Source: Cetorhinus maximus (Eukaryota). From it: a stretch of 64,000 bases of DNA. Where the stretch lies: positions 124,001-188,000 of the forward strand of contig NW_027596508.1 of assembly GCF_964194155.1 (NCBI RefSeq), in the 5' to 3' direction. The notes beneath the pieces are model-generated. The model did no database searches. It was not told the DNA's origin and saw nothing but the letters and a program-made list of their open reading frames with translations. The stretch's first letter is position 1; every line of letters starts with the position of its first letter. The position numbers were made by a program, and so were the translations under genes. Shown here piece after piece: positions 14,842 through 38,482 of the stretch.

Positions 14842-14931
14842 GGCTCGTTGGTCTAGGGGCATGATTCACGCGTTGCGAATTTCATTCTATTAATCTGCGA
14901 GAGGACCCGGGTTCAATTCCCAAACGAGCCC
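14842..14931 (+). pseudogene. tRNA-Pro-bodied gene with an 18-nt intron (14878-14895) and anticodon TGC; stem mismatches
   Basis: GGCTCGTTGGTCTAGGGGCATGATT CACGC GT TGC G [AATTTCATTCTATTAATC] T GCGAG AGGAC CCGGGTTCAATTCCCAAACGAGCCC; 72 nt after removing the insert. Confidence 0.85.
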
Positions 14932-15567
14932 ATCGGGCATCTTAATGCAGTAATTTTTTTCGCGCTCGAGGTGGTGGCAGTTCCGGAAATCAGGACCAGG
15001 TTTGAACACCCGGGAACTCATTGCAGAAAATGCATCACTAAAAACACGCGTGATGAAAATGAATGTCAAGATTAAAGAACGTTTCTCCGTGCCATGAGAC
15101 TCTAAATTTATCCCTATGCGTCAAATAAGGCAACTCCCTCCGTGTGGATTCAGGTTGGAGGCTGATTGCACTCGGCTACAATCTTGACTGAAAGGACAAG
15201 CAGAGCTGGGAACCCCAAAGTTTCATTTTATTTTACGACATTTTAAAGTGTTCCGGTGCTTGTAGTGAGCTGGAAGGGGTTTCATTTTGCAACCAAATGC
15301 TTGTAAGTTCCGGTCTTCCAGCGCTGGATTTTCACACTGTGTAGAAACATGTTGGATATCAGGTTGAAGTGTTGAAGTGATTCACATCAGTGGGTTTACA
15401 ACAGTCCCTGATCTGATGTGGTGGGCATTTATGTTAATGGAAGAAACTACATTTCCACCTTTACACATCTGGCCGAATATTCAGGGCCTGTACCAAAGAG
15501 GATCATTTATTTCAACAGTTCATGAATGCAAAAAGTATAGAAGGGCGTTTAATAGGCCCCATTTGGT

Positions 15568-15649
15568 GCCGAGCTGGCCGAGAGGTTAAGGTGATGGAAT
15601 AAAAATCCATTGTATTTTGCACGTTAAGGTTCGAATCCCACCTTGGTCG
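15568..15649 (+). pseudogene. tRNA-Ser-derived pseudogene (unit A2)
   Basis: Paralogue of 57-138 with the same ATAAAAA loop. Confidence 0.85.
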
Positions 15650-17985
15650 TTGTTTCATCAACTGTGTCTTCCTCGGTGCGGTGATTTTGCAGAAGGTCTG
15701 CCTGGAATCACTGATGTGATACTCCAACCCAAGTTCTGAGGCCAGATTGCACAGAGCTTTCTTCTAAGATCTCCGTTGCGATTTTATTGTTAACAATAAC
15801 TTGGGGATCCGATATAGAGTCCATTCGACTTGATATATCTCTCTAAGAGGAGTTAGTGGAGCAGTGGAAATATCCGGGGGACTTATGTTCATTTCCCACC
15901 ATGGCTGCTGCTGGAAATTAAACTCAATAATAAAAATCTGCAATTAAACGCTAATGTCAGTGATGGTTCACTGATGTCTTCCCTGGCCAGGACATTTGAG
16001 TTTGATTCCTAACTGCCCGCTGAGAAATCCACGGAGTTCAAGTACAATTTGGAATGTGTAACAAAGACTGGCCTTGCGAGCGACGCTCACATCCCATGAA
16101 ATATTGTTTTCACTTTTTGAAATACAAGCGTTAGGCCACCCCTCAGCCTTGTTATTACAAGAGAATAAAGATCCAAACTGTCAATCCTTTCGTCCTTGTA
16201 TACCACGCATTGCACTTTTTGTTATTTATTCTTCTTTTGTGGGCTGTGTGCGTCAATTGCACGGCCAGAACTTCCTGCCCTTCCCTAATCTCCCTCGAAC
16301 TGGATGGCTTGCTCAGTAATTTCCGAGGGCAGATAAGAGTCAACCATATCCCCATGTGCAAGGAGTGACATGTAAGCCAGACCAGGTCAGGATGGCAGAA
16401 TGTTTCCTCTTAAGTGCATTGGTGAACCAGATGATTTTTTTTAGTACAATCGACGATATTATCATGGCCGTCATTACAGAGACCAGCTTTCAATTCAAGA
16501 ATCATGAAATAATTGAAATTAAATTCCACGAGCTGCCACGGTGGGATTTGAACACTTACCCCTAGAGATGAGCCTGGGCCTCTGGATTACGAGACCAGTG
16601 ACATCATCTTTCATCCCTGGAAACATAAACTGAACATTCAGCGAATCATTCAGCCGCTTGATGAGGAAATTGCAATTCCCTCCGCAGCATTTTATTAAAC
16701 GGATTAATGCAAAACCTTTTGTTCCATTGGAAATATCAATATTTTCTCGACATTAATCAGATATTGTGGATTTCTTAGTAACGGAACACAATCCAAAGAT
16801 GAGTGAGGGATGAATGCACAAAGTAACAAGGAAATACATTCTGAGAAAGTGCTCCGCATTGTTTGTAAGAAAAAGCAGAACTTGCAGCTGACGAGTGGGA
16901 ACCTGGTTTACTGGACGTTCCACCAGATTTCTGTATAAAGCAACGGGACAGGACACGAAATCTTCTGATTACACCATAATGTACATTGAAGTCAGACGCC
17001 TGATCCATTCGGACCAGGCTACCATTCCTTCCAGCCAGATAATGCCTTGTCCATAAAAACTGTGCTGCATTTATGTCTGTTGAATTTTTGAATGATCCAC
17101 TGATTCCCAGAACCTTGACCTCGGGATCTCAGATTGATTTTGGATCATGAAGTCAGTTCCTATTGTCCGCACCTCTCCTCAAAATGTCGCTGCAATTTTT
17201 TGTCCTCTCTAAATCTTGGTCCGTTGACCTTCACTCAATCGTTGCTAAATTCCTGAAATGAAAACACAGAACATCCCCTTCATCCAAACCACTTCGAAAG
17301 GAATTCCTTCTTCCTTGTTTAACAAGAAATTCCACCGACGGTTCGGAGATGTTGAGGCGAGCGTGTCAGAGTGAGGAACTGTTTCCAATGATTGGCAATC
17401 CAGGTACTGGGGCGGGGTGGAGGTGGAGTTTGGTGGGAGGGAGAGGTGGGGGATAGGGGTTAGAGGATGGGAGAGGTTGGGTGGGGGGTAGGAGCTGGCG
17501 GCACTGGGGGCAGTAAAACATTCAGAGCTTTCCGGAGGTGAAATTCGAAACCATCTCTATCGACAGACGGGGATGAGAATTTCAGAGCTCCCTTCCGGAA
17601 ACGACACTTCAATTTTAAATCTCACTTTGATAGATTTCTAACCATCAAATATATTAGACAAAAGGGAGAAAGGTGGGTATTTCTATACATCGGAAACTTG
17701 CTGCTTGAAATATTAATGAAGACGCTGAGTTATGCATTCACTGTAATCGAACTCAGTTTTCTTTGATGACAAATAAGAACCGAATCAGCAATCCTCCCAT
17801 CATGCTGAAATCAATTTATTTCTGCAGCTACAAGATGACTGCAAACTGAAAATAATGTCACTCCGACACTTTCTGTTCATAGTAACAGGCGCTGGAACAC
17901 TTCCTGTCCCTATGATACAGACACTTAGACACTTGCTGCCCAACAATTGATTTCAGTCCTGTGAAAGCGTTTGTGAAATTGTGAA

Positions 17986-18378
17986 ATGTCTGGAAGAGGA
18001 AAGACCGGCGGTAAAGCTCGCTCCAAGACCAAGTCTCGCTCCTCCCGGGCTGGACTGCAGTTCCCGGTGGGCCGTGTTCACAGGCTCCTGAGAAAGGGCA
18101 ACTATGCTGAGCGTGTGGGTGCCGGAGCCCCGGTCTATCTGGCTGCTGTGCTCGAGTATCTGATGGCTGAAATCCTCGAGCTGGCCGGTAATGCGGCCCG
18201 GGACAACAAGAAGTCCCGCATCATCCCCAGACACCTGCAGCTGGCCGTCCGCAACGACGAGGAGCTCAACAAGCTGCTGGGAGGGGTGACCATCGCTCAG
18301 GGCGGGGTGCTGCCTAATATCCAGGCCGTGCTGCTGCCCAAGAAAACCAGCGCCGCTGCGGCCGCGAAGACCAAGTGA
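17986..18378 (+). CDS. H2A: Histone H2A, full length, closest to canonical (T59M, T76S)
   Basis: 130-aa ORF followed by the stem-loop at 18409-18424. Confidence 0.93.
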
Positions 18379-36845: not shown

Positions 36846-36918
36846 TGCCGAAACCCGGGATCGAACCAGGGACCTTTAGGTCTTCAGTCTAACGCTCTCC
36901 CAACTGAGCTATTTCGGC
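36846..36918 (-). tRNA. tRNA-Phe(GAA), near intact (T39C gives an A31:C39 mismatch)
   Basis: The minus strand reads GCCGAAATAGCTCAGTTGGGAGAGCGTTAGACTGAAGACCTAAAGGTCCCTGGTTCGATCCCGGGTTTCGGCA. Confidence 0.95.
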
Positions 36919-36931
36919 TGACAGAAATGCG

Positions 36932-36999
36932 TTCTTCGAGCCAGAATTGAACCAGAGAACTAAGGATGTTAGTTTTACAGGCACCTGCAGTCCTGCGCT
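36932..36999 (-). pseudogene. 5'-truncated intron-containing tRNA-Tyr remnant (intron 36968-36984; anticodon GCA)
   Basis: Paralogue of 31928-31995. Confidence 0.78.
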
Positions 37000-38407
37000 T
37001 ACATTAGAGAACATGATCGCATAATGACAAAGGACAGCCATCGCCTCATTTCAGTTCCCTCCAGTTTTCCAGTTTTTCGTGATAAAGAGGGGGTGCAAAG
37101 CCCAACGAAGCATCAGTTCATTGCCATAATCTCTCGGCCAATCGCTACACAGGGATTGTCCGACAAACAGCTTTCTTCATCCTTTGAGTGAATTGCTCCC
37201 TGACGTCACTATTAAATGGCTTCGCTCTAAGTTTAAGGTTACATACATTTGTTCTGCACTCCCCCGCCAGAGAAAATCGTTTCTCCGCATTAAAACCTAT
37301 TAATCATCTCAATTACCTCAACCAGATAACGCCTACAGCTTCTCAACTCACGAGCTGGTGTCAGCTGTGGCTCAGTTCATAGCACCCTCGCCTTTGAATC
37401 AGAGGGTTGTGGGTTGTTGTCCCGCTCCCGGAAAACCAAGAACTGTGATTGTACTCGAAAGAAGTTGCAATCTGTGACTGTTGGTAACTTGAGAGAGTTC
37501 CCCAACTCACGAGTATGTAAACGTCACAGCGGGAGCACATTTAACTGCATGCAGATCAGAAAAATGTGTGTTTCGCACTTGGTCATGGCTAGTTTTACAC
37601 CAAATCTGTATCTGAATTAATGGAACCCGCTTGTGATAAACCCTGTCACCTTTCACTGTTTAGCTGATCAGTTTCATAGAGCCACGTATGTGATTTCCTC
37701 AGTTCCGCTTTTGTTCAAAGCCGGGGGAATGCATCAGAGATGTCAATTTTAAGCCAGCTCTATTCACTCCAAGTGAAATCAAGAAATGGCTGAAGGCACG
37801 GGTAACTGCAAAGGCTTTGGGCCCTGACACCATTCCTGCAGCAGCCCTGAAAACCTGTGCTCCAGAAATAGCCTCGCCCCTCACCAAGTTGTCCCAGTGC
37901 AGCTATAGGACTGGCATGTACCCGGCAATGTGGGAAATTGCTCAGATCTGTCTGATCCACAAAAAAACTGGAAAATTCAACCGGAAAAAAACCGCCCCAT
38001 CAGTCTTCACTCGTTTATCAAGAAAGTGAGGGAAAATGTCTTCTACAGTGCGATCAAGCGGCAATAACCCGCTCACTGAAGCTCAGTTTGTTTTCTGCCA
38101 GGGTCACTCAGCTCCTGACCTCATTGGAGCCTTGGTCCAAACATGGAGAAAACAGCTGAACTTAAGACGCGAGGTGCAAGTGGTTGCACTTGAGTTCAAA
38201 CAAGTATTTGACGTAATGTGGCATCAAGGAACCCCAGCAAAACTGAAGTCAATGGAAATAAGGCGGGAAACTCTCCACTATTTGGAGTCGTCCCCGGGGT
38301 TTCTAAAACATTCGAAAATATTTCCAGCCTGAGCTGTAATTCGCTTATGATTGATGCACTTTGTGTGACAATGAAATGATTCCTTGAGTGCATCTTGTTA
38401 AGAAGGT

Positions 38408-38482
38408 GGCTTGTTGGTCGCTTTGGGTTTTTCCTTTGAATTAATATGCCTGAGGTCCCGGGTTCAATTCCCGGACGAGCCC
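38408..38482 (+). pseudogene. tRNA-Pro(TGG) pseudogene with a 19-nt intron (38428-38446) and D-arm deletion
   Basis: GGCTTGTTGGT/CGC TT TGG G [TTTTTCCTTTGAATTAATA] T GCCTG AGGTCCCGGGTTCAATTCCCGGACGAGCCC. Confidence 0.82.

Follow-up and report, generated by a model that had tools for sequence, protein, structure and literature searches.

When a tRNA-Pro sequence carries a short insert just 3' of its anticodon, is it a dead fragment or a relic of a gene class that is spliced? The question is raised by a stretch of the Cetorhinus maximus genome (3.99 Gb), referred to here as the window, which spans 64,000 nucleotides (nt) at positions 124001-188000 of contig NW_027596508.1 (coded C450). A BLAST search with three copies as queries against the window gives exactly five tRNA-Pro-derived loci at E<=0.001. 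Alignment to an intronless tRNA-Pro gene of the same genome (L031), which served as the reference for insert placement, puts an insert directly 3' of G37, between positions 37 and 38 (37/38), in all five copies, although the boundary can slide by one base wherever the insert ends in G. The five loci, their coordinates and their inserts of 18-19 nt one base 3' of the anticodon agree with the original prediction for this DNA. Most proline tRNA genes in the genome carry an insert at 37/38 and many of these genes are intact. The five copies in the window are dead members of this living class.

Intron-bearing tRNA-Pro genes in the genome

A pattern for a Pro anticodon arm with a gap of 10-30 nt matched the genome 112 times and its reversed control 0 times; therefore, the inserts are not a product of chance. 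Among the matches listed, at least nine of the 112 have the anticodon AGC. Tight patterns for intron-bearing Pro anticodon arms gave 98 matches (20 AGG, 51 TGG and 27 CGG) and none in the controls, and all of these genome counts are lower bounds. Ninety of the 98 arms lie on contig C32 between 8.9 and 21.3 Mb, in a tRNA array of about 12 Mb. The remaining eight are split between two small contigs (three arms) and the large contigs C4, C7, C12 (two) and C22. The intronless Pro arm has seven exact matches and eight at up to two mismatches (4 TGG, 3 AGG, 1 CGG), with T-runs near all eight genes. The intronless Pro-TGG gene on contig C8 (L126:5474-5546) shows a compensated base-pair change in its anticodon stem. 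A pattern-free scan of 800 kb of contig C32, which missed one known AGC copy at a 10-kb join, returned 23 Pro-derived copies. The 37/38 insert is present in 23 of 23 and none is intronless; 11 are intact and 12 are damaged.

The structure of 77 of the 98 arms was examined (all AGG, 30 of 51 TGG and all CGG); the 37/38 position of the insert in all 77 follows from the construction of the pattern. No stem is broken and none of 14 invariant bases is changed in 58 genes (16/20 AGG, 20/30 TGG and 22/27 CGG), and the invariant D- and T-loop bases of box A and box B are likewise present in 58 of the 77. The exons of 14 of the 20 AGG copies are identical to those of the intronless genes. A run of four or more T occurs within 30 nt of 46 of the 58 intact genes (AGG 16, TGG 20, CGG 10) and within 60 nt of all of them. 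The original prediction held that functional members would have to lie outside the window, and the intact copies found for all three anticodons bear this out.

Contig C12 carries two single-copy, intact Pro-AGG genes arranged head to head 1.4 kb apart. The sole difference of each from the intronless genes is C20. Their introns of 18 nt (C12a) and 12 nt (C12b) are unrelated to each other, and their terminators lie at +3 and +2. The gene with the 12-nt intron, the shortest found, is located at L115:5602-5687. The gene on contig C22 has a G18C change, and the copies on contigs C7 and C4 are damaged. A genome with no intact intron-bearing tRNA-Pro had been named as the outcome that would speak against the original prediction; the genome holds intact genes, including the two on contig C12. 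As for synteny, Pfam searches around the C12 pair, which covered 121 of 121 open frames, gave no anchor; those around the C22 locus, which covered 148 of 160, gave retroelement domains only.

Exon conservation and a putative splicing signal

Exons change more slowly than introns and flanks. Among representatives of six lineages, the 47 exon positions left free by the pattern show a difference of 0.027. Introns differ by 0.446 and flanks by 0.43-0.46, both at the level of unrelated sequence. The exon difference is 0.083 once two damaged lineages join the six. Within the AGG subfamily of the array, the differences are 0.005 in exons, 0.057 in introns and 0.04-0.08 in flanks. In the AGG and main TGG subfamilies taken together, exons have 10 variants at 94 sites compared with 86 at 400 in flanks (p=0.017) and 12 at 36 in introns (p=0.007), and these p-values are optimistic since array copies share ancestry. 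A pooled exon-versus-flank test (p=2e-13) was dropped: the CGG flanks are heterogeneous and misaligned (241 variants at 200 sites), and L099 was excluded for an indel. Conversion from the intronless genes is unlikely to be the cause of the exon likeness because class-specific exon variants persist in the CGG (A16) and TGG (C20) classes. The introns at separate loci have diverged to chance level; therefore, the class is old. Together with the 98 arms, this supports the view of the original prediction that the lineage has an old intron-bearing tRNA-Pro class.

The available text of PMC8479045 describes the pairing of a pyrimidine at position 32 with an intron purine at -3 as the sole preserved feature of human TSEN substrates, and reports that 3' cleavage by human TSEN is blocked when this pair is broken. 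Loss of the pair also lowers splicing in fly cells (PMC6614914, available in part). In the AGG and TGG genes, U32:A(-3) is present in 49 of 50 (20/20 AGG and 29/30 TGG), and pairing is possible for U33:(-4) and G35:(-6) in 77 of the 77 examined genes. The introns of five separate loci are for the most part unrelated in other respects; at these loci, 17 of the 20 pairs at positions 32-35 could form (shuffle p=0.00026). A register test across eight lineages gives 26 of 32 potential pairs in the canonical register, compared with 7-17 for shifts of -2 to +3. The CGG class (L088-L114) keeps the pairs at 33-35, and C34:G(-5) is found in 27 of 27 copies. Its base opposite position 32 is not the standard partner; U32.U(-3) occurs in 27 of 27. 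Since the 32:(-3) pair is absent throughout, this class is not a sure member of the canonical TSEN-spliced introns. The TGG gene L067 has A16 and an intron of the CGG class, which marks it as a recent switch of anticodon. Exons with PF01974 that match TSEN34 and TSEN2 were found in the genome; a TSEN34-like exon (L236) lies on a small unplaced contig at C4028:16077-16175.

The genome also contains a second unusual intron-bearing class, Arg-TCG, which is parallel to Pro and absent from the original prediction. There are 52 Arg-TCG matches with an insert of 16-17 nt at 37/38 versus two intronless matches. Thirty genes were examined; 26 are intact (17 with G37), and A37 is found in nine of the 30. 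The base C32 is paired with G(-3) in 30 of 30. The -3 base is A in Pro and G in Arg-TCG, so the intron base tracks position 32, as predicted by selection for TSEN cleavage. Standard Arg-TCT intron genes are present in the same C32 array. An intronless Arg-TCG gene (L281, contig C25) has a compensated base-pair change in the anticodon stem.

Competing explanations and known systems

The best explanation is that, with high probability, RNA polymerase III (Pol III) transcribes the intact genes, TSEN cuts the precursors at 37/38 and ligation through RTCB yields a tRNA-Pro that is identical or nearly identical to the product of the intronless genes. TFIIIC and Pol III would act from boxes A and B, TSEN would cut after G37 by its ruler with the 3' site set by the U32:A pair, and RTCB would join the exons as the intron of 12-19 nt is released. 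The steps of the TSEN/RTCB pathway are established knowledge (PMC10485636 and PMC10275265, each available in part). The class would have been amplified in the tandem histone/tRNA array with birth-and-death turnover, a process that would account for the death of roughly half of the copies in the array and of all five in the window. It is likely that one intron-bearing gene spread by anticodon change and tandem amplification because introns from the three anticodon groups of the array show relatedness (4 of 6 pairs at p<0.05 on contig C32). As judged from sequence, this is a real, largely intact and likely spliced class of tRNA-Pro introns that would be new for vertebrates, with Arg-TCG as a second case.

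Several results weigh against this explanation. The eight intronless genes cover all three Pro anticodons; therefore, the intron class is not needed for proline decoding. Twelve of the 23 census copies are damaged, and the exon comparisons within the array have the optimistic p-values given above. The CGG class keeps the 32:(-3) pair in 0 of 27 copies, and only 10 of its 22 intact copies have a run of four T within 30 nt. Register shifts of +4 and +5 give 23 of 32 pairs, which is near the canonical value. The probability of the 32:(-3) pair is at most 0.04 in 8 of 8 representatives under unconstrained folding, which also misfolds the cloverleaf in several of them. No spliced retrocopy was detected, and this null is uninformative, the intronless pattern at two mismatches having returned only the eight genes. 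Among public sequencing runs, no RNA run was listed as containing the array; 20 of the 24 runs listed, from four organisms, contain part of an 801-base array stretch at shares of 0.14-0.36, which says nothing about expression or about other species.

The damaged copies would be expected if the inserts were silent passengers that go back to one insertion in a dead gene, multiplied by tandem duplication, with all tRNA-Pro supplied by the eight intronless genes. Dead subfamilies have indeed been amplified in the array, namely 25 TGC copies, two of them with intact stems, and at least nine AGC copies. Even so, this account is very improbable. Exons are about 97% alike where introns and flanks are at chance level, the contig C12 genes are intact and single-copy with unrelated introns and tight terminators, and the pairing positions of the intron are conserved, with the A of Pro replaced by G in Arg-TCG. 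A narrower alternative is that only the AGG and TGG genes are spliced well and that the CGG class is a poor TSEN substrate, which stalls after the 5' cut or is miscut, leaving CCG decoding to the single intronless CGG gene and tRNA-Pro(UGG). The U32.U(-3) mismatch in every CGG copy, the distant terminators of 12 of the 22 intact copies and the cited effects of pair loss on human and fly splicing make this quite possible, although on balance doubtful. The 22 of 27 CGG copies that are intact argue the other way, as does C34:G(-5), which together with U33:(-4) and G35:(-6) makes a stronger helix than in the other classes; a U.U stacked on such a helix may suffice.

The number and the age of the gains also have to be considered. 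Several independent gains at 37/38 in different tRNA-Pro genes, rather than one, would fit the introns at C12a, C12b, C22 and C7, which are mostly no closer than shuffles (2 of 22 pairs at p<0.05), and the range of intron lengths (12, 17 and 18 nt). The recurrence of 18 nt at C7, C12a and contig C32 and the relatedness across anticodons on C32, which suggests switching from one ancestor there, make such gains improbable, and long divergence may explain the remaining unlikeness. It is also unlikely, to a lesser degree, that the introns are an ancestral feature of jawed vertebrates, one that mammals have lost and that tRNA databases already record for fishes or amphibians. In its favour are the age of the separate loci, the intron-bearing tRNA-Pro(UGG) of yeast (PMC13079951, available in part) and the existence of tRNAscan-SE output for sharks with many intron-containing loci (10.1101/2025.06.08.657570). 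However, that preprint, in its available part, presents intron abundance as a shark feature; PMC10275265 gives Tyr-GUA, Ile-UAU, Arg-UCU and Leu-CAA as the families in human; and the literature search, which did not extend to GtRNAdb, found no paper that names an intron class of Pro or Arg-TCG in vertebrates.

The putatively spliced tRNA-Pro class shares several features with the vertebrate TSEN/RTCB families, as far as these are covered in the available parts of PMC10275265 and PMC8479045. The intron is short, lies between 37 and 38 and varies among members; a pyrimidine at 32 can pair with a purine at intron -3; and intron-bearing and intronless genes are mixed, as in human Arg-UCU and Leu-CAA. 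Unlike those families, the isotype here is Pro with all three anticodons, plus Arg-TCG, there are about 100 copies rather than 5-13, most of them in a tandem array, and the CGG class is without the standard proximal pair. The budding-yeast tRNA-Pro(UGG) family is likewise a proline tRNA with a canonical intron, but it has 10 genes with introns of 30-33 nt, one anticodon and ligation by Trl1 (PMC13079951). Introns here have 12-19 nt, occur with three anticodons in vertebrate-type exons and have intronless genes alongside. The yeast gains treated in the available part of the review PMC4090602, such as tRNA-Ala(UGC) in Lachancea thermotolerans and tRNA-Leu with switched anticodons, are similar in being lineage-restricted and spread by anticodon change. 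They differ from the present case, in which both gene types coexist stably in a vertebrate; the same review states that introns tend to be present in every member of an isodecoder family or in none. The Squalomix preprint on elasmobranch tRNA clusters (10.1101/2025.06.08.657570) has, in its available part, no structure or selection analysis of the kind given here. The whole words 'proline', 'Pro', 'isotype' and 'arginine' are absent from its main text, and its figure or supplements may name isotypes. Nothing on vertebrate Pro introns appears in the available parts of PMC11417395, PMC2888827 and 10.1101/2022.09.02.506201, and a text search of the supplements of PMC3964593 and PMC8450103 had no match.

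The set of spliced tRNAs in vertebrates is usually given as four families, to which two more would be added in one lineage; splicing is not reported as needed by human proline tRNA genes. Intron-bearing genes that stand beside intronless ones with identical mature sequence offer a natural experiment on the gain, spread and purpose of tRNA introns. They would also provide dozens of natural TSEN substrates for working out splice-site rules, among them a gene whose intron has 12 nt and a conserved subfamily that lacks the usual proximal pair. In practical terms, scans that are blind to introns miscall such genes; ARAGORN named several of them Lys, Ile or Ser. A broader idea, which is tentative and leans toward the unlikely, is that sharks gained introns in Pro tRNAs (three anticodons) and Arg-UCG that are unspliced in other vertebrates, and route most of these tRNAs via TSEN from the giant histone/tRNA array at peak demand, e.g. 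in oogenesis. If true, splicing would gate the decoding of proline and of the arginine codons CGA and CGG, the non-standard proximal pair of the CGG subfamily would be the slow step, and intron-dependent anticodon modifications that are absent from mammals would become possible.

The window copies and their setting

None of the five window copies has an intact mature body after removal of the insert. The original prediction had also seen damage in every copy, and each of the five indeed has broken pairs, a lost 5' end or the loss of 16 nt in the D-arm. It had further described a clear tRNA-Pro body at all five loci and a 72-nt cloverleaf restored in the two full-length copies. All five are Pro-derived, but three are without a Pro anticodon (TGC, TGC and AGC), which had been missed. 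The length of 72 nt is correct for the two full-length copies, but both have the TGC anticodon and broken pairs. The broken pairs of the copy at 14842 are one in the anticodon stem and two in the T-stem, and 12 of the first 36 bases of the minus-strand copy differ, most of them among bases 1-15. The 32:intron(-3) pair is absent in the three copies with non-Pro anticodons. Neither ARAGORN at default settings nor Rfam makes a Pro call for any of the five. At a relaxed score ARAGORN gives i(37,18) for the insert of the 24154 copy; over the window, its relaxed output is mostly noise. Feature positions are collected in Table 1.

Table 1. Positions of the tRNA-Pro-derived copies, their inserts, the duplicated and histone-bearing units, and the Arg-TCG genes
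Feature	Position (in the window unless a contig is named)	Strand	Source
Full-length pseudogene derived from tRNA-Pro, TGC anticodon, three broken stem pairs	14842..14931	+	
18-nt insert at 37/38, 83% AT, G32.A(-3), no proximal pair	14878..14895	+	
Full-length pseudogene derived from tRNA-Pro, TGC anticodon, broken 1:72 pair	24154..24243	+	
18-nt insert at 37/38, 94% AT, C32.A(-3), no proximal pair	24190..24207	+	
Pseudogene derived from tRNA-Pro, AGC anticodon, damage to 5' end and box B, amplified dead subfamily	26652..26741	-	
18-nt insert at 37/38, 83% AT	26688..26705	-	
tRNA-Pro(TGG) pseudogene, 16-nt D-arm deletion	33248..33321	+	
18-nt insert at 37/38, 61% AT, A at -3	33268..33285	+	
tRNA-Pro(TGG) pseudogene, same 16-nt D-arm deletion as the 33248 copy	38408..38482	+	
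19-nt insert at 37/38, 84% AT, A at -3	38428..38446	+	
Duplicated units (13572-17264 and 22885-26565) with the two TGC copies, 93.8% identical	13572..26565	+	BLAST
Duplicated units with the two TGG copies, tRNA-Phe and tRNA-Ser, about 89-91% identical	30873..39804	+	BLAST
Frames of histone H2A and H4 type and five histone 3' stem-loops, with tRNA-Gly genes in between	2499..19393	.	translations
Arg-TCG genes	contig C32 8.97-21.5 Mb (L169-L198); contig C27 (L199); contig C25 (L281)		

The TGC and AGC copies of the genome are dead lineages carried by duplication and not mistranslating tRNAs. Both of the TGC copies with intact stems have C32.A(-3), and the one copy of 25 that has U32:A has a broken 1:72 pair. 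The AGC copies examined share a destroyed 5' end. A working tRNA with a Pro body and an Ala anticodon was considered and rejected, as no TGC copy combines an intact body with a spliceable intron (0/25).

The first 40 kb of the window consist of nested duplications with tRNA-Gly, -Phe and -Ser genes and histone frames. Around the gene, the units of the TGG copies are about 82-84% identical to those of the TGC copies. The copy at 14842 and its flanks are 99.2-99.4% identical to copies on contigs C32 and C678, and the surroundings of the TGC and AGC copies have the same identity to several places on contig C32; therefore, the window is one unit of a larger array. The histone names were recognised from the printed translations rather than by a family search. 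Several of the histone frames have substitutions at normally constant residues, and two H2A units in the same interval have no coding-strand frame of 95 amino acids.

The rest of the window (40000-64000) is repeat-rich with a strong G skew. It contains two tRNA-Met(CAT) genes on the minus strand, at 44417 and 60443, and a degenerate tandem repeat at 60800-61700. Elsewhere in the genome, a second tRNA array on contig C1365 (L283-L293) has 11 Arg-ACG-type anticodon arms in 65 kb. Two globin exons of the genome point to a likely elasmobranch source. The best PDB chains for one of them are 1gcv, 3mkb and 1cg5 (92.5, 82.8 and 75.7 bits, with the next natural single chain at 55.9), and those for the other are 1gcw/1gcv and 3mkb; 1gcv, 1gcw, 3mkb and 1cg5 are shark and ray haemoglobins.

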